A DNA stretch of 64,000 bases from a virus, in the IMG/VR virus record IMGVR_UViG_3300046373_000196, positions 1 to 64,000 of that record; one strand, 5' to 3'. The notes under the pieces are model-generated. The model made no database searches, was not told the origin of the DNA, and saw nothing but the letters and a program-made list of their open reading frames with translations. The translations under genes and the position numbers were made by a program. Position 1 is the first letter of the stretch, and each line of letters begins with the position of its first letter. This document shows positions 7,100 through 51,956 of this stretch, in pieces.

Positions 7100-7144
7100 G
7101 CCGGTAGTGAGTTGTACTTTTGTAAGTGTGTGTGTAACTGTGTG

Positions 7145-9968: not shown

Positions 9969-9997
9969 AAATAAATATTGTAGAATGATATTTATTC
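9969..9997. promoter_or_regulatory. 29-bp dyad promoter/operator element, copy 2 (bidirectional)
   Basis: AAATAAATATT-gtagaat-GATATTTATTC. -7 boxes TATGTTTG at 10012-10019 (+) and TATCTTTA (rc of 9950-9957, -). Confidence 0.7.
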
Positions 9998-10026
9998 TGT
10001 TGATTAATTAGTATGTTTGAGGCGTC

Positions 10027-10110
10027 AATAACGTTGCAGGTTATTAACACTCAAAAAGATATTCAAAGCCTGGCTTAGTAGCGCTGCAACCGCGAACAGC
10101 CGGGCTTTTT
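10027..10110 (+). promoter_or_regulatory. structured 5' leader: hairpin plus terminator-like hairpin with complementary 7-nt apical loops
   Basis: Hairpin 1: AATAAC/GTTATT (10027-10045) with loop GTTGCAG. Hairpin 2: AAAGCCTGGCT/AGCCGGGCTTT (10065-10108) with inner GCG/CGC and apical loop CTGCAAC (10084-10090), then a T-run. The ATG is at 10124. Confidence 0.6.
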
Positions 10111-10123
10111 GTAATTTAATATT

Positions 10124-10777
10124 ATGGAAAAAGAAAAGTATGAGACTCAAAAGGATTTGTTTTATATTCTTGAAAATTGGGTTAACGGAGATTACCAAGC
10201 CAATTATTTAAGAACTATCAATAGAGAAAACAAGAAATATTTAATTTCGGATTGCCAGCGATATGTAAAATCTTGGGATGTTCCTGGTCAGGATTACAAA
10301 TACACTTTTATATACAAGTGGGCAAGAAAGTACTTTAAAGATGATAGCGAGCTAGGATTTAGGCGTTCTATTGATAGGAATTCAAATACAGATGGTGTCA
10401 TGAATTACTCACTAGTTCAACCTTACGAAGTACAATGCAATGAAGATTTTAAAAAGTTATTTGAGGGCAAACATTTGAGTCTGTATGACTTTAATATTCC
10501 TACTAATCATCCCTTTTCTGGATGGGATTTAAAAACAGTCTCTTATCTGAAATCGCTATTTAAAACAAATGAAGTTTACGTTTTTTTTGATGATGGAATA
10601 GAAAGAAAGCCTCAATCTGACCTACATAAAACAGGTACTTTATTTCATATGAACCATTTCGGGATTGACAAAAAATTTATAAAAAACGATTTGCAGTATT
10701 ATAATAGAACTATCATTTTTTGGCTATTTGAAAACAGATTAGTTTTTAAATATGAATCGGGGAAAGATACTTGGTAG
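10124..10777 (+). CDS. hypothetical protein
   Basis: ORF track. First gene after promoter copy 2 and the leader. Confidence 0.5.
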   Translation: MEKEKYETQKDLFYILENWVNGDYQANYLRTINRENKKYLISDCQRYVKSWDVPGQDYKYTFIYKWARKYFKDDSELGFRRSIDRNSNTDGVMNYSLVQPYEVQCNEDFKKLFEGKHLSLYDFNIPTNHPFSGWDLKTVSYLKSLFKTNEVYVFFDDGIERKPQSDLHKTGTLFHMNHFGIDKKFIKNDLQYYNRTIIFWLFENRLVFKYESGKDTW

Positions 10778-15333: not shown

Positions 15334-15396
15334 ACTTCCACACGATTGGTTCGTGTCAAAAGTAAGGTTGATTCCACAGCATTTTTTGCTCTACCC

Positions 15397-15517
15397 GGTG
15401 GTCAGTTTGCTCCGAATTCAGGTGGTCAATTTACTCCGAATTCGGGTAGTCAATTTCGCCCGGAACAGGTGGTCAGCTTAAACCGAATTGAGGTGGTCAG
15501 TTACACCGAATTTTCCA
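15397..15517. repeat. five direct subterminal repeats at the IS21 right end
   Basis: GGTGGTCAGTTTGCTCCGAATTCA / GGTGGTCAATTTACTCCGAATTCG / GGTAGTCAATTTCGCCCGGAACA / GGTGGTCAGCTTAAACCGAATTGA / GGTGGTCAGTTACACCGAATTTTCCA. Multiple transposase-binding repeats are a hallmark of IS21 ends. Confidence 0.8.
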
Positions 15518-15525
15518 TACTTTGA
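15518..15525. repeat. target-site duplication, right copy (TACTTTGA)
   Basis: Identical to 12885-12892. Confidence 0.85.
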
Positions 15526-15691
15526 TGCCAAAGAAAAAGATATTCTGGTTGCAGCAGAACACGATATTATTTACAGTGTAGATATAGATGAAATTATTGA
15601 GGCTGGGATAACCGAAAAAGATGCAACTGATTTAATGTTATTGAATTGGGGTATTGATGTAGATAATGACTGTTTATATTGTTTTGTTTGA
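15526..15691 (+). pseudogene. 3' part of the gene interrupted by the IS21-family element
   Basis: Joining 12892 to 15526 restores one frame: ...IIAKYFDAKEKDILVAAEHDIIYSVDIDEIIEAGITEKDATDLMLLNWGIDVDNDCLYCFV. Confidence 0.8.
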
Positions 15692-15702
15692 ATTGTACTC
15701 TC

Positions 15703-15915
15703 ATGACCAAGCCAGCCCTACAACACCTAAAAGAATCCTTTTCTGATCTGGATGAAAAGGAAATGGATAAGATGGTTGAAGTGATGAAAAGGTATGCGAG
15801 GGAGTGTATTGTTGCTTCAATTAACGATATTATAGTAATTGCTTCGGAATATATCAAATACGAGTATGGTGAATATGCAGATAAAGTTGAAAACTATAAA
15901 ATTGAAACTCCATGA
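15703..15915 (+). CDS. hypothetical protein
   Basis: The ATG at 15703 (MTKPALQHLKE...) was chosen because it lies downstream of the previous stop. Confidence 0.45.
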   Translation: MTKPALQHLKESFSDLDEKEMDKMVEVMKRYARECIVASINDIIVIASEYIKYEYGEYADKVENYKIETP

Positions 15916-16049
15916 AAACATTTCCTGAAATATTAGATGAACAATTAGCAATAGCGCCAAAGATGTTATGAGAATAGCGAATTATATGATGATGGGTTTG
16001 CTGTCGAAATTAACAAAGGCTCCATTTTAAACACTGAAATAATACTGCC

Positions 16050-18330: not shown

Positions 18331-19497
18331 TTATCTGAATATAAAGGTGGCGTAGGCTCCTGAGACGTTCCCTTGCATAAAAACTCCGGCAGCACAATCA
18401 TAATAGTATGTATTCTGGTTACAGTCTGCGATCCACTTGCCAAAGCTATCAAGGCCTATCTTACCCTGCATTTTAACAATACGGCCGGGGTTATTATTCT
18501 GGTAAGAGTAGTTGCTTAAAGGCGTGTTTCTTTTAATAATTTCACCGCCGATTACGTACGTCCACTCATAGCCAGAATTCAAAGGATAGGTTGCGATATC
18601 ATTAATGATCCAGTTCTTGGAACTGCCTGTAAATTGCAGGTTCATTATTGTAGTCTGTCCCTGATAAACAATCCTTGCCGTTACGTTGGGCTCTTCCGGG
18701 TCTGGATCAGGATCGACCGGTGTCGGATCGGTTGGGCCCGTGCTGGTTGTGACTGTAAAGGTCTTGTCTGACATCCCGGTACACAGCACACCGTAAAAGT
18801 GCAGGTTGTAGTTACCGTCAGGGATTCCCGGGTACGAAAGATTGACCGTTGATGATGTAGGCGTGATTTGCCCTGTTCTAAGCTTGATATTGGGCGTAGA
18901 AGCATTGGTTATCCACCATCCGATCTGCGTAACGCCGTTGCCGTGAAAAGTGGCTGTTAATCCGGTTTGTGTAGGGTTAACGATGGTGAGTATTGTTGGC
19001 CCTGCACTGCAATTCGGCAAGGGCTGCGTAGGATCTACCGGATCTGTGGGATCGGTAGGATCGGTCGGGTCTGGATTATCACCGCCACCAAGATTGTAAT
19101 TAAACCCTACATAGCACGTTGGACGCGCGGTTGGCCTGATGGTGATACGCACACTGTCAAGTTGTGGTACGCCTTCAATCCGCATGGTTTCACCCGTTTG
19201 ATAAGGGACTGCATTCCAAAACCACGATTTATCGTTCTTGACAATCCGGATCGAGTAGTTATTTAGTCCCTGAATCGAAGAACTCAGACCAAGTTCAATT
19301 GCTGAACCGTCCTGCACGATCGAGCTTATCTTTAAATCACAGTCAGAAATGTTATACTTCTCTAACTGATCGAAAAGATAATTCTGTACCCATTCTTCGG
19401 TCGCTACATTGCCTGATGCAGGATACGTGATAACAGACTGGGAAAATCCTGGAAGAGCCGCTACAAGTAGTAGCAGATTTAGAAAGTACTTTCTCAT
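18331..19497 (-). CDS. exported protein with fibre-like N-motif, PTDP linkers and Cys-bounded Ig-like module
   Basis: Met at 19497 gives MRKYFLNLLLLVAALPGFSQS. ATEEWVQNYL motif, DPTDPTDPTDPVDPT linker, and NCSAGPTILTI...YPGIPDGNYNLHFYGVLCTG module. ATGA overlap with the upstream gene. Confidence 0.6.
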   Translation of the reverse strand: MRKYFLNLLLLVAALPGFSQSVITYPASGNVATEEWVQNYLFDQLEKYNISDCDLKISSIVQDGSAIELGLSSSIQGLNNYSIRIVKNDKSWFWNAVPYQTGETMRIEGVPQLDSVRITIRPTARPTCYVGFNYNLGGGDNPDPTDPTDPTDPVDPTQPLPNCSAGPTILTIVNPTQTGLTATFHGNGVTQIGWWITNASTPNIKLRTGQITPTSSTVNLSYPGIPDGNYNLHFYGVLCTGMSDKTFTVTTSTGPTDPTPVDPDPDPEEPNVTARIVYQGQTTIMNLQFTGSSKNWIINDIATYPLNSGYEWTYVIGGEIIKRNTPLSNYSYQNNNPGRIVKMQGKIGLDSFGKWIADCNQNTYYYDCAAGVFMQGNVSGAYATFIFR

Positions 19498-20006
19498 TTC
19501 TTCCTTACGATAAAGTCCTCTGAATCTCTTCCGGTGCACGTGTTCGCAATTAGTGTTAGATGATAGGCTCCATCAGGCAGATTCGGATAGCCAAGTCTGA
19601 TCGTGTTGGAGGTAGGCGTTACCGATCCTTTGGTGATCGTTTCGTAGACCGGCCCAAGAAGCAGGTAATCCATCCCTTTCACATTCAAACCGTCAAACAC
19701 CACTGAAATCCCGATGGATGCATCATACGTCACTTTTGTGATCGTTGGCCCTCTGTCACAATTCGGGAGCGTTACAACCGGAGTTGTCGGAATCGTCGGG
19801 ATAGAAGGATTGGTCGGGATAATAACCGGTGGGATGTTGATTACAACGCCGGACTGCGCTTTTGCCAGTGAATCAAATTTGGCCTTGATGCGCTTTTCCA
19901 CATACTCTTCCGAGGCGATCTTTCCGGGTGGAAATGTGAGCGTAGTCTGAGCCAGTACCCCGTCATACAACAGCAGCCCAAATAAAATAAATAGTAAGTT
20001 CTTCAT
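19494..20006 (-). CDS. exported protein with fibre-like N-motif and Cys-bounded Ig-like module
   Basis: Signal peptide MKNLLFILFGLLLYDGVLAQ. ASEEYVEKRI motif, Pro-rich linker, and NCDRGPTITKV...YPNLPDGAYHLTLIANTCTG module. Confidence 0.6.
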   Translation of the reverse strand: MKNLLFILFGLLLYDGVLAQTTLTFPPGKIASEEYVEKRIKAKFDSLAKAQSGVVINIPPVIIPTNPSIPTIPTTPVVTLPNCDRGPTITKVTYDASIGISVVFDGLNVKGMDYLLLGPVYETITKGSVTPTSNTIRLGYPNLPDGAYHLTLIANTCTGRDSEDFIVRKK

Positions 20007-20101
20007 TGCCTGTACGTGTGTGTGTGATTGCTGCTCTATTACTGATCTTCAATCAATTGAATACGAGCATAGAGCATACAGACAAAGATAATTATTTTCG
20101 T

Positions 20102-20130
20102 AAATAAATATCGTAGATAGATATTTTTAT
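20102..20130. promoter_or_regulatory. 29-bp dyad promoter/operator element, copy 3 (bidirectional)
   Basis: AAATAAATATC-gtagata-GATATTTTTAT. -7 boxes TAGCTTTG at 20145-20152 (+) and TATCTTTG (rc of 20083-20090, -). Confidence 0.7.
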
Positions 20131-20161
20131 TGTTAGGAAATTAGTAGCTTTGGGGTGTACT

Positions 20162-20253
20162 AAATGGTATTTCTTTTGTGATAGGAAGTGATACCATTCT
20201 CTGGAATGGAACTTCCATCAGACCCCAAACTTGTCTATCACCTTGTTTGGGGT
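20162..20253 (+). promoter_or_regulatory. structured 5' leader: hairpins plus terminator-like hairpin with complementary loop sequences
   Basis: Hairpin AATGGTAT/ATACCATT (20163-20198) carries GTGATAG (20178-20184) in its loop. A small hairpin TGGAA/TTCCA follows. Hairpin ACCCCAAAC/GTTTGGGGT (20222-20253) carries CTATCAC (20235-20241) in its loop, followed by a U-rich tract. The ATG is at 20270. Confidence 0.6.
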
Positions 20254-20269
20254 TCTTCGTTTATTTATC

Positions 20270-20959
20270 ATGCACGATCCAAGAACACTAGCTTTCAGTA
20301 TAAAAAGTCCTTTTAAATCAAAGTCAGGCTATCAACCTTCATTAATTGATATATGGCACGTTGATCCGGATAAAGGGTATGATGATGACAGTTGTGGTTG
20401 GTTTATTCGTGAGCGTCACATGAATAAAAAGAATCTTGAATTTATCCGAAGAGATTTTGAGTATTCATACAAAGAGTGGTATTATGAATCAAATGGATTA
20501 GGTCGGTTTTCTCCCCATGCTATCGCTATAATGATGTACAATCGTGCTGTGTGGGAATTAGCAGATGGTAATACGGATTTTAAATCAAAAACGCGAGAAG
20601 TATTTATGAGAAAGTATTTGTATGATATACTTTATTTCTCAGAAAATAGTACAGATTCTATTTGCCGAACACTTACCAGTGCAACCAAAGGAGAAGTTGT
20701 TGATTTGGCTGGTATAATTGCCGCGGATGTAGCTAGAAAATTACGCCCTTGGTACAAGCACCCACGCTGGCATATTCATCACTGGGAAATTCGATTTAAT
20801 TTCTATTATGATTTTTATCGTGGTTACATTCAAAAATGCGACAATTGCGGGAAAAGGGGATGGAAAGGTGGATGGTTTAGGACTTACAAGAATGGAAAAC
20901 CATTGCTTTCATGCGGAAGGTGTCAGGAAATTGGATGTAAGTCAACGGTAAATTCTTAA
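20270..20959 (+). CDS. hypothetical protein with C-terminal Cys-rich (zinc-ribbon-like) tail
   Basis: ATG at 20270 (MHDPRTLAF...). HPRWHIHHW motif. CDNCGKRGW...CGRCQEIGC. Confidence 0.5.
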   Translation: MHDPRTLAFSIKSPFKSKSGYQPSLIDIWHVDPDKGYDDDSCGWFIRERHMNKKNLEFIRRDFEYSYKEWYYESNGLGRFSPHAIAIMMYNRAVWELADGNTDFKSKTREVFMRKYLYDILYFSENSTDSICRTLTSATKGEVVDLAGIIAADVARKLRPWYKHPRWHIHHWEIRFNFYYDFYRGYIQKCDNCGKRGWKGGWFRTYKNGKPLLSCGRCQEIGCKSTVNS

Positions 20960-21770: not shown

Positions 21771-21801
21771 AAAACCACTACCAACCAGTAGTGGTTTTTT
21801 T
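21771..21801 (+). terminator. intrinsic terminator
   Basis: AAAACCACTA-ccaaccag-TAGTGGTTTTTTT. Confidence 0.8.
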
Positions 21802-21819: not shown

Positions 21820-21848
21820 AAATAAATATCATAATACAATATTTATTT
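21820..21848. promoter_or_regulatory. 29-bp dyad promoter/operator element, copy 4 (head-tail operon)
   Basis: AAATAAATATC-ataatac-AATATTTATTT. -7 box TACATTTG at 21862-21869 (+). Confidence 0.7.
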
Positions 21849-21948
21849 GATTTTTTAATTATACATTTGTTGTGTATGATAAAAGCCAAGTTTTCATTCG
21901 ATTGAACCCTTGGAACGACAGAATACTACACACACACTTAATTATTTC

Positions 21949-22617: not shown

Positions 22618-22653
22618 GTAAGCATTTAACACACACACTTAATTTCTTGACAA

Positions 22654-23247: not shown

Positions 23248-23273
23248 TCACACACTGAAACACACACACTAAT

Positions 23274-36450: not shown

Positions 36451-36618
36451 TTAGGAGGCTGTCTCAATTTTTCCACTATTCTTGCGAGCCTTTTTAAGTT
36501 CTCTTGTAATCAGCTCCCTCAAATGCTCACTTGGCGTTGTTTCATTATTTTCACACAAGTCGGTGAACTCTTTTTTGACGTTGGCGCTTACCCGAACCGG
36601 TATCATTTTGTCTTTCAT
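36451..36618 (-). CDS. ribbon-helix-helix (CopG/Arc-like) DNA-binding protein, 55 aa
   Basis: My translation: MKDKMIPVRVSANVKKEFTDLCENNETTPSEHLRELITRELKKARKNSGKIETAS. This shows the beta-strand then two helices of the RHH pattern. It lies directly downstream of promoter copy 5. Confidence 0.6.
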   Translation of the reverse strand: MKDKMIPVRVSANVKKEFTDLCENNETTPSEHLRELITRELKKARKNSGKIETAS

Positions 36619-36666: not shown

Positions 36667-36695
36667 AAATAAATATCATCCTTAAATATTTATTT
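36667..36695. promoter_or_regulatory. 29-bp dyad promoter/operator element, copy 5
   Basis: AAATAAATATC-atcctta-AATATTTATTT. -7 box TACATTTG (rc of 36644-36651, -). Confidence 0.7.
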
Positions 36696-40247: not shown

Positions 40248-40595
40248 TCAATACTTGAAAGGAAAGTACTTTTTAATAAAGTCTGCTTGTTTTGTCGAAT
40301 CTTTCTTGAATTCTTTAACAACATTATCAACCTTTAATTGAATTTGTTTTGATTCGTTATAATTACTATCTGCAATTACCCTGTACTTAATCATTTCACT
40401 TGTATTTCCATAGCTCATATTTGACATACTCATATTGAATATGGCCGTGTTCATAATTTCTGACTTATCGTTCATGAGTTCTTTCCATTTGTTAAAACGG
40501 TTAGATGACACGAAACTTCCCGGTTTAGCAATACAAATCCATAAAACTAAGTAAACGCCAATTATTGATCCAATTGTAATTAGAGTAACTCTCAT
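40248..40595 (-). CDS. N-terminally anchored membrane protein
   Basis: VTLITIGSIIGVYLVLWICIA TM segment. First gene after promoter copy 6 and the leader. Confidence 0.5.
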   Translation of the reverse strand: MRVTLITIGSIIGVYLVLWICIAKPGSFVSSNRFNKWKELMNDKSEIMNTAIFNMSMSNMSYGNTSEMIKYRVIADSNYNESKQIQLKVDNVVKEFKKDSTKQADFIKKYFPFKY

Positions 40596-40616
40596 AAAAT
40601 TAATTTTTAAATAAGA

Positions 40617-40704
40617 AAACCCGCATCAAGTGAGGTTGACGCGGGTTTCTATGAATTTCCATTCATTGAATGGTATTGAGGAGCCTCACTTCGCCAATAC
40701 CATT
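40617..40704 (-). promoter_or_regulatory. structured 5' leader (minus strand): hairpin plus terminator-like hairpin with complementary loops
   Basis: RNA sense. Hairpin 1: AAUGGUAUUG/CAAUACCAUU (40669-40704), loop containing AGUGAGG. Hairpin 2: AAACCCGCGUCAA/UUGAUGCGGGUUU (40617-40648), apical loop CCUCAC, then a U-rich tract. The ATG is at 40595. Confidence 0.6.
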
Positions 40705-40733
40705 TAGTATGTAGCAAAGGTAATAAAATCTCA

Positions 40734-51385: not shown

Positions 51386-51541
51386 TTTACTTCTGTTTTC
51401 AATTAAATTATTAAACAATCCAGAACCCCTAGACCGGTAATACCGCCAACTACTGAGAGAATTTTTAAGTGTTGGAAAACTGAATTGTTGTTGTGGGTTC
51501 CTGCCGTGCATTCAATGAGAATGCTAGTCAACCCTATGCCG

Positions 51542-51614
51542 TCGCGAATATCAGAATTGAACTGATGACCTTTGGTTTATGAATCCAACGCTCTACCAAC
51601 TGAGCTAATTCGCA
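51542..51614 (-). tRNA. tRNA-Met/Ile2 type, anticodon CAT, with non-canonical 1:72 U.G and 31:39 A.A
   Basis: Hand-folded cloverleaf: acceptor TGCGAAT/ATTCGCG, U8, D arm GCTC-AGTTGGTA-GAGC, anticodon arm TTGGA-TTCATAA-ACCAA, variable loop AGGTC, T arm ATCAG-TTCAATT-CTGAT, discriminator A. No CCA is encoded. Confidence 0.75.
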
Positions 51615-51884
51615 TTTTCTTTGCTCAACCGGGAAGATGCGTCTAACTTCTTCCCGGCCACCAACCTTTAATCAGAACATCCACCTTGCAGACTTCTGAG
51701 CGTGATTTTTATTTCATAGATGCGCTTTCCAAGCTATAAAATTAAGGTTCGAACTAAAAAGAGGAAACCCCAATCGGTAGAAGGCGACTGGGGTTAGGCG
51801 GAACACTAATTCCGTGAAACAATGTTCGCGCCTTCTACCTCGAGGACATTGTTAATTGCTCTGTAAACATACAAATAATTTCAA

Positions 51885-51913: not shown

Positions 51914-51956
51914 GATAAATTAATTTAACTTTGAGCATTACAACACACACACATAA

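Follow-up and report, generated by a model that had tools for sequence, protein, structure and literature searches.

A phage genome of ∼79.2 kb carries five paralogous leaders, in each of which the loop of a 5′ hairpin contains a perfect Watson-Crick complement to a stretch in the loop of a terminator-like hairpin further along the same strand. The complements span 7, 7, 8, 11, and 8 nt in the five members (M1 to M5, in that order), and their sequences differ in every copy. Four members lie in the window, by which we mean the whole 64-kb stretch of DNA that was analyzed, and the fifth lies just outside it. Judged from the sequence, the leaders are a real, selected RNA architecture. They constitute an RNA family without prior description, seen in one phage, whose parts are known kinds of element (a promoter-proximal terminator and kissing loops) in a new combination. 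The architecture by itself, with no function attached, would still make this a new structured RNA family. An earlier note, built around the member at 20162-20253, had proposed a leader family that keeps loop-loop complementarity while the loop sequences change; this proposal is upheld here, with five members rather than three.

The Phage and Its Likely Host

The window is contained in a circular genome, as an identical Logan contig extends both window ends and the two extensions overlap. The phage encodes a lambda-E-type major capsid protein, an SPP1-type portal, Terminase_2, a GH108 lysozyme, RecT/YqaJ, and a DnaB-like helicase, together with one tRNA gene, for tRNA-Met. A DNA search among GenBank phages returned no close relative, the best match being a 53-nt chance hit. 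Homologues of the first gene downstream of M2 (the M2 gene) are found on prophages of Terrimonas, Spirosoma, Hanamia, and Flavobacteriaceae, and in other phyla too. The host is likely a member of the Bacteroidota, because the TAnnTTTG boxes of the phage promoters fit the sigma-ABfr −7 consensus and because prophage-borne homologues of the M2 gene occur in that phylum. A separate feature of the genome is a tandem repeat that is iteron-like and may mark a replication origin:

15397-15512: 4.9 copies of the 24-nt unit GGTGGTCAGTTTACTCCGAATTCA, inside a 700-nt gene-free gap (15334-16049)

The Promoter Module

A palindrome of the form AAATAAATATC-N7-GATATTTATTT occurs at ten sites in the 79.2-kb genome, including the following:

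Window 4699, 9973, 20106, 21824, 36671, 40738, 46452, and 51889; genome 71759: palindrome sites

In most copies a TAnnTTTG box lies 15-19 nt past the palindrome arm, on one or both sides, and the palindrome overlaps the −33 region of the promoter. The Bacteroidota sigma-ABfr promoter consensus is cited as TAnnTTTG centered near −7 (PMC7366714). At 9973/9993, 20106/20126, and 51889/51909, a single palindrome serves two divergent promoters. The palindrome resembles an operator at which a dimeric regulator of the phage would act on nearly all operons, and a small protein encoded beside one copy is a candidate to bind it:

36451-36618, − strand: 55-aa ORF, the first gene after the promoter copy at 36691(−), with sub-threshold ribbon-helix-helix matches (RepB-RCR_reg, 1.2e-3; RHH_1, 0.014; RelB, 0.033)

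The Member 2 Leader

The region 19800-20700 was re-read from the sequence, and every element of M2 was found where the earlier note had placed it:

20102-20130, divergent (+ toward M2, − toward the ORF at 19494-20006): promoter palindrome AAATAAATATC-GTAGATA-GATATTTTTAT
20145-20152, + strand: −7 box TAGCTTTG, which fits the sigma-ABfr-type TAnnTTTG
20163-20198, + strand: first hairpin (HP1), with an 8-bp stem (AATGGTAT at 20163-20170, ATACCATT at 20191-20198) and a 20-nt loop
20178-20184, + strand: X, the HP1 loop heptamer GTGATAG
20202-20217, + strand: HP2, a small hairpin in the 23-nt linker (TGGAA at 20202-20206, TTCCA at 20213-20217)
20222-20253, + strand: HP3, terminator-like, with a 9-bp G+C-rich stem (ACCCCAAAC at 20222-20230, GTTTGGGGT at 20245-20253) and a 14-nt loop
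20235-20241, + strand: X′, the HP3 loop heptamer CTATCAC, reverse complement of X
20254-20269, + strand: 16-nt U-rich tract TCTTCGTTTATTTATC between HP3 and the start codon
20270-20959, + strand: first gene of the M2 operon (229 aa, ATG at 20270), with conserved Cys, His, and Trp positions
21771-21798, + strand: canonical intrinsic terminator closing the M2 operon, just before the promoter copy with the palindrome at 21824

The predicted promoter has a TAnnTTTG box near −7, as expected of a sigma-ABfr promoter, and would place the transcription start at about 20156-20159. GTGATAG and CTATCAC are indeed reverse complements, each in a hairpin loop (shuffle P = 3.5e-3). X′ has a predicted unpaired probability of 0.98, and the predicted energy of the X:X′ duplex is −7.1 kcal/mol. 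The 121-nt region has a predicted fold of −35 kcal/mol (z = −3.5), with none of 200 shuffles as good. The octamer TTTGGGGT appears twice in M2, at 20148-20155, where it overlaps the −7 box, and at 20246-20253, in the 3′ arm of HP3. A transcript that ran in from further upstream would contain the first copy as a possible competitor for the 5′ arm of HP3; the repetition is probably a coincidence, since the other members have no equivalent.

The M2 leader is noncoding, because the ATG at 20270 is the true start of the gene: in the N-terminus MHDP..., Met1, His2, and Pro4 are invariant or nearly so in 37 homologues. This 229-aa protein has more than 200 homologues, in phages and in prophages of several phyla, and no match in Pfam or PHROG. 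Its invariant positions include DDSCGWF, WYKHPRWHIHHW, and a CxxC, and it represents an uncharacterized, probably metal-binding family. The operon holds three genes, which encode this Cys/His-rich protein, a cupin-like protein, and a 90-aa protein.

Five Members with One Order of Parts

All five members have the same order of parts: promoter copy, 5′ hairpin HP1, linker, G+C-rich HP3, and U-rich tract. The leaders are promoter-proximal and ∼95-105 nt long, with X and X′ as separate sequences on the same strand, 50-57 nt apart.

10027-10107, + strand: M1; X GTTGCAG, X′ CTGCAAC, 7 pairs; HP1 6 bp, linker 20 nt, HP3 10 bp
10012-10110, + strand: M1 leader with its −7 box (10012-10019); HP1 at 10027-10045, with the 7-nt loop GTTGCAG at 10033-10039
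10066-10107, + strand: M1 HP3, with an inner GCG/CGC stem and the 7-nt loop CTGCAAC at 10084-10090; a T5 tract is next, and the ATG is at 10124
20163-20253, + strand: M2; X GTGATAG, X′ CTATCAC, 7 pairs; HP1 8 bp, linker 23 nt, HP3 9 bp
40704-40617, − strand: M3; X AAGTGAGG, X′ CCTCACTT, 8 pairs; HP1 10 bp, linker 20 nt, HP3 11 bp
40616-40722, − strand: M3 leader with its −7 box (40722-40715); HP1 at 40704-40669, X at 40691-40684, HP2 at 40665-40652
40648-40617, − strand: M3 HP3, X′ at 40635-40628; a T-tract is next, and the ATG is at 40595
51853-51766, − strand: M4; X GGTAGAAGGCG, X′ CGCCTTCTACC, 11 pairs; HP1 8 bp, linker 22 nt, HP3 9 bp
51766-51871, − strand: M4 leader with its −7 box TATGTTTA (51871-51864); HP1 at 51853-51818, X at 51839-51829
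51795-51766, − strand: M4 HP3, X′ at 51786-51776; HP2 lies in the 22-nt linker, and a T-tract follows HP3
51541-51614, − strand: tRNA-Met, the first gene downstream of the M4 leader
Genome 71826-71904, + strand (L104, 19332-19410): M5; X GTTCGAGA, X′ TCTCGAAC, 8 pairs; HP1 4 bp, linker 30 nt, HP3 6 bp
Genome 71759-71904 (L104, 19265-19410): M5 including its promoter, between the DUF4494 and YopX genes

The two partners in M1 are both 7-nt loops, complementary over their full length. M5 is the weaker member, with an HP1 stem of 4 bp, an atypical −7 box, and a longer 5′ lead; its palindrome has two mismatches, and the only −7-like box, TACATTTA, stands 6 nt past it. The small linker hairpin HP2 is present in M2-M5 and absent in M1. 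A U-rich tract follows all HP3 stems and is interrupted in M2 and M4.

HP2 contains GGAA in three members (20202-20217, 40652-40665, and ∼51814-51799): M2 and M3 have it in the loop, M4 has it in the stem. A CsrA-type GGA site in HP2 was considered and set aside as a family feature, GGA being absent from M1 and M5. We also rejected two other ideas: a single long inverted repeat spanning the leader, since the 3′ arm of HP1 and the 5′ arm of HP3 are not complementary, and a tRNA-like (D-loop/T-loop) mimic, which is ruled out by the dimensions and the lack of an acceptor stem.

Loop Complementarity and Covariation

To assess the loop matches, both loops of each member were shuffled with lengths and compositions kept, and complements at least as long as the real one were counted. 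The resulting P values are 2.2e-3, 3.5e-3, 8.6e-4, 3e-5, and 3.2e-4 for M1-M5, or jointly ∼1e-16. Only cognate pairs match in this way, as loop 1 of one member and loop 3 of another match over 5 nt at most. A detector that calls for HP1, a G+C-rich HP3, a T-tract, and a loop complement of at least 7 nt, applied genome-wide to both strands, gave exactly the five members. The detector alone is not highly specific, because its same-sense control gave six weak matches, which lie inside genes. All five detector sites have strong stems and fall within ∼130 nt downstream of a palindrome copy, a portion of the strand space that we estimate at ∼1.6%.

M2, M3, and M4 align with 70% column identity in an alignment that is not structure-aware. 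On it, 84% of cells pair, against 35-54% when the partners are slid by 1-3 columns, and the HP1 stem is 100% paired in the three members, with four compensatory pairs. The earlier note had called the HP1 stems of M2 and M3 nearly identical, and the two do have ACTAAATGGTATT in common and can be aligned gap-free across HP1; their homology is clear. It had also held that the loops co-vary. The loop helix does change between M2 and M3 by two double-sided replacements in register, U-A to G-C and A-U to G-C, in paralogues of one genome; in M4 the loop helix is one column out of register on the M2-M4 alignment. The covariation evidence rests on paralogues within one genome, because leader orthologues were not found in other phages.

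Operon Context and Distribution

All five leader-bearing operons are nonstructural, and those other than the M2 operon are as follows:

M1 operon: five small genes of no recognized family
M3 operon: small unknowns, an AAA ATPase, and a 532-aa protein
M4 operon: tRNA-Met, dUTPase, and unknowns
M5 operon: YopX and unknowns

The leaderless promoter copies precede scaffold and major capsid genes, GH108/GDSL lysis-type genes, and large tail-like genes. They have short unstructured UTRs with CACACAC runs, whereas the kissing-leader copies are without such runs. The motif CACACACA is ∼tenfold enriched in the genome, with 13 matches against 1.2 expected, and several copies, among them those listed below, stand 5-25 nt upstream of structural or late-type start codons (capsid, scaffold-like, tail-like). 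It may be a Shine-Dalgarno-independent translation enhancer.

Window 20017-20026(−), 21929-21936, 22630-22637, 23261-23268, 51944-51953, 7127-7134(−), and others: CACACACA copies

No leader counterpart was found in the ∼1.3 Mb of phage and genome loci examined. None lies near the homologues of the M2 gene that were inspected (L001, L100 at 76% identity, L101-L103, and twelve GTDB genomes, L126-L137). In these relatives the gene sits inside ordinary operons, and the leader therefore belongs to the promoter module and not to the gene. The leader was likewise not found in the neighborhoods of a homologue of the 600-aa protein (L106, a 78-kb relative), in those of the adenylosuccinate-lyase-like gene (L107, L108), or at the locus of the one distant homologue of the protein downstream of M1 (L125), and searches with the 594-aa and DUF4494 proteins yielded no relatives. 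In fourteen loci (210 kb) around related capsid genes of 55-65% identity, the detector was at background, with 11 complementary and 9 same-sense matches. Promoter-pattern scans of viral and metagenome contigs gave single chance matches only. A covariance model built from M2-M4 recovers its three training members and, weakly (16 bits), M5; in 425 kb of external sequence it found nothing. At the gathering threshold, Rfam 15 matched only the tRNA in the whole window, and permissive scans (E up to 10) of M2, M3, and M4 gave sub-threshold matches of at most 26 bits, against cut-offs of 38-114, to generic terminator-bearing leaders and sRNAs. We found no description in the literature of a leader in phages or Bacteroidota in which a 5′ hairpin kisses a terminator loop.

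Proposed Function and Alternatives

Our leading reading, offered tentatively, is that the leader is a promoter-proximal attenuator or gate in which the terminator hairpin HP3 is docked by HP1. Transcription would begin a few nucleotides past the TAnnTTTG box, and HP1 would be the first element to fold, its loop displaying X. Some 20-23 nt on, the polymerase would make HP3 and the U-rich tract, a signal of the intrinsic-terminator type with X′ in its loop. X and X′ would then form an intramolecular kissing helix of 7-11 bp that docks HP1 on the terminator loop, and the docked state would set the efficiency with which HP3 closes and the polymerase stops. A pre-formed X:X′ helix could organize the large HP3 loop and speed closure of the stem, such that termination would hinge on HP1 being available; an effect of opposite sign, in which docking delays HP3 closure, is conceivable too. 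In either case, the leader would lower the expression of five nonstructural operons, or make it conditional, relative to the structural and lysis operons, which have the same promoter type, often at the same palindrome in the opposite direction, and short, unstructured, CA-rich leaders. The sequence itself shows the anatomy, the family, and the complementarity statistics; where transcription starts, that the loops kiss, that HP3 terminates, and which way the effect runs are inferred from it.

Several observations bear on this gate. A G+C-rich hairpin with a U-tract stands between promoter and first gene, as in attenuators, with M2 and M5 fitting less well owing to large loops and interrupted U-tracts. 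In a terminator scan, the HP3 hairpins of M3 and M4 are the two best sites in 13 kb, with M3 at the top in 39.5-52.5 kb. A simple scan of this kind misses M2 because its HP3 loop exceeds 8 nt, and in M1 the 10-11 bp HP3 stem is followed by a T run (T106-T110). Several HP3 loops measure 14-22 nt before inner stems, far larger than is usual for terminators, which is why docking could pre-organize HP3. Among the long-range interactions in the predicted folds, only the loop contact is conserved. MFE and constrained folds revealed no conserved nested alternative pairing of the HP3 5′ arm that would make a mutually exclusive antiterminator, and only in M2 and M4 does X find another, weaker partner in the linker. 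The linker is nearly constant in M1-M4 (20, 23, 20, and 22 nt), as expected if the hairpins must meet within one molecule. M4 precedes a tRNA and not an ORF, which excludes a purely translational role for that member. Counting against a role for docking, the HP3 stems are already very stable and therefore need no thermodynamic help. With HP2 folded, moreover, the linker is by geometric estimate short for a straight coaxial complex of ∼25-30 bp, which implies bending or opening of HP2; known 7-bp kissing complexes do bend. No antiterminator, Rop-like or other RNA-binding regulator, or Q-like protein was recognized in the genome, in which most early proteins have no family match.

A bolder form of this reading, which is possible though rather doubtful, is that the five leaders are a new class of riboregulator, self-addressed kissing-loop terminators with a private loop code of 7-11 nt for each operon. 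Termination at HP3 would then depend on docking by the cognate 5′ hairpin. All five operons could then be switched together, with no cross-talk between transcripts, by one sequence-independent factor, be it the polymerase itself, an RNase, or a Rop-like protein, that recognizes how the loops kiss; Mg2+ or temperature could do the same. If so, terminator strength would be programmed in a modular, orthogonal, and protein-free manner. A loop contact that controlled termination would be a compact, natural way to adjust terminators through tertiary structure, already orthogonal in five versions, and could be put to direct use in Bacteroidota synthetic biology, which has few regulatory parts. Pseudoknotted cis-regulators backed by within-genome covariation are rare in DNA phages, and this would be one of them. 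The phage, whose operons nearly all have one promoter type, would then exemplify how expression classes can be kept apart in RNA, with kissing leaders on nonstructural operons and CA-repeat leaders on structural ones.

Several of the rival readings that follow could hold alongside the attenuator. It is unlikely, in our estimate, that the units are stand-alone sRNA genes, each the source of a plentiful small RNA, compact and locked by the kissing contact, that would serve, for example, as a decoy or as a platform for proteins, with the downstream genes expressed only by leakage through the terminator. Each unit does have every part of an sRNA gene (a promoter, a 5′ hairpin, and a 3′ hairpin of the terminator type), the gene after M4 is a tRNA rather than an ORF, and there is precedent in Bacteroides, where sRNAs derived from 5′ UTRs and ending at Rho-independent terminators are documented (PMC7366714). 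However, in M1-M3 the start codon stands only 16-22 nt past HP3 and no other promoter is visible for these operons. Read-through would therefore be obligatory, which makes each unit at least as much a leader as a gene. Complementarity to targets elsewhere in the genome is not above chance either, 10-mer matches of the loops being at chance level; one 14-nt loop match, at genome position 74240, is inside a coding region.

We give a similarly low probability to an mRNA-stabilizing or insulating 5′ UTR, in which HP3 would not terminate and a kissing-locked dumbbell would block RNases and keep the A/U-rich initiation region unpaired. Such a device would matter in a phylum without Shine-Dalgarno-led initiation, and translation in Bacteroidota is tuned by mRNA structure around the start (PMC6847099). 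In M1-M4 the predicted 5′ end lies only ∼4-10 nt ahead of HP1, and the tract from HP3 to the ATG is A/U-rich and unstructured, both as this alternative would have it. On the other hand, M4 precedes a tRNA, a simple 5′ hairpin would suffice, and neither a perfect loop complement of 7-11 nt nor a U-tract after a G+C-rich stem would be needed. The structural operons, presumably the most highly expressed, also do without the leader.

Intermolecular pairing, in which HP1 of one leader kisses HP3 of another copy in dimers or rings as in the phi29 packaging RNA, appears quite improbable. The cognate-only complementarity would suit it, as would a linker that looks, by estimate, short for a straight intramolecular complex with HP2 folded. 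Yet the near-constant linker argues for an intramolecular constraint, the local concentration of intramolecular partners is very high, the units stand at operon starts and not near packaging genes, and the Rfam pRNA model is unmatched. Finally, that the matches have no RNA function at all, being chance heptamers, remnants of inverted duplications, or protein-bound inverted repeats in DNA, is scarcely credible: the relaxed detector has a nonzero background (the six weak same-sense matches) and there are no orthologues for an independent covariation test, but the joint shuffle probability is ∼1e-16, all five sites come directly after promoter copies in ∼1.6% of the strand space, both partners always lie in hairpin loops on the transcribed strand with covarying stems, and one DNA-binding protein cannot read five loop pairs that differ.

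Comparison with Known Systems

Like the phi29 pRNA, each leader has two complementary, covarying loops in one phage RNA. In phi29 the loops pair between molecules through 4-nt contacts to form a ring on the portal, and the RNA comes from a single gene. The leaders differ in fold, match no pRNA family at the Rfam gathering score, and, rather than a single copy by packaging genes, occur as five copies at operon starts in a phage with a lambda-E-type capsid, an SPP1-type portal, and Terminase_2. The gating of phage operons by a promoter-proximal structured RNA or terminator recalls HK022 put and the lambda pR′-tR′ (6S RNA)/Q system. In put there are two stem-loops but no pairing between their loops, and put is no terminator in its own right; lambda has one gated late promoter and a DNA-bound Q protein, whereas no Q-like protein was recognized in the leader-bearing phage.

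In the P4 CI RNA (seqB with seqA/seqC) and the P1/P7 c4 RNA (a′/b′ with a2/b2), a 5′ element pairs downstream and causes premature termination or a block, and related phages differ by compensatory changes. The leaders resemble these in being phage leaders with a structured 5′ element complementary to sequence further down the same transcript. The P4 and P1 RNAs are processed and act in trans as immunity factors on linear target sites; in the leaders, by contrast, the targets are the loops of terminator hairpins ∼50 nt away, and there are five independent units per genome. No P4/P1-type Rfam model matched over the window at the gathering score.

The fully complementary 7-nt loops of M1 have the classic geometry of ColE1 RNA I/RNA II and TAR/TAR*, kissing complexes that are bound by Rop/Rom. 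In ColE1 the two RNAs are antisense to each other, transcribed from opposite strands, and are therefore complementary of necessity. Unlike ColE1/pT181 countertranscripts, X and X′ lie on one strand, and because both loops belong to one transcript, their complementarity must be kept by selection.

The nearest documented principle is the L5-L13 interaction of the corrinoid riboswitch, and a complement between an upstream loop and a platform loop is present, at the sequence level, in all five leaders. In that riboswitch the upstream loop pairs with a loop of the expression platform, stabilizing the regulatory hairpin there and deciding between terminator and antiterminator (PMC10327014). No Cobalamin or AdoCbl-family aptamer matched M2, M3, or M4 at E up to 10. 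The kissing helix has 3-5 pairs in the corrinoid riboswitch and 7-11 perfect pairs in the leaders, whose loop sequences are private to each copy instead of conserved and whose kissing hairpin is itself terminator-like.
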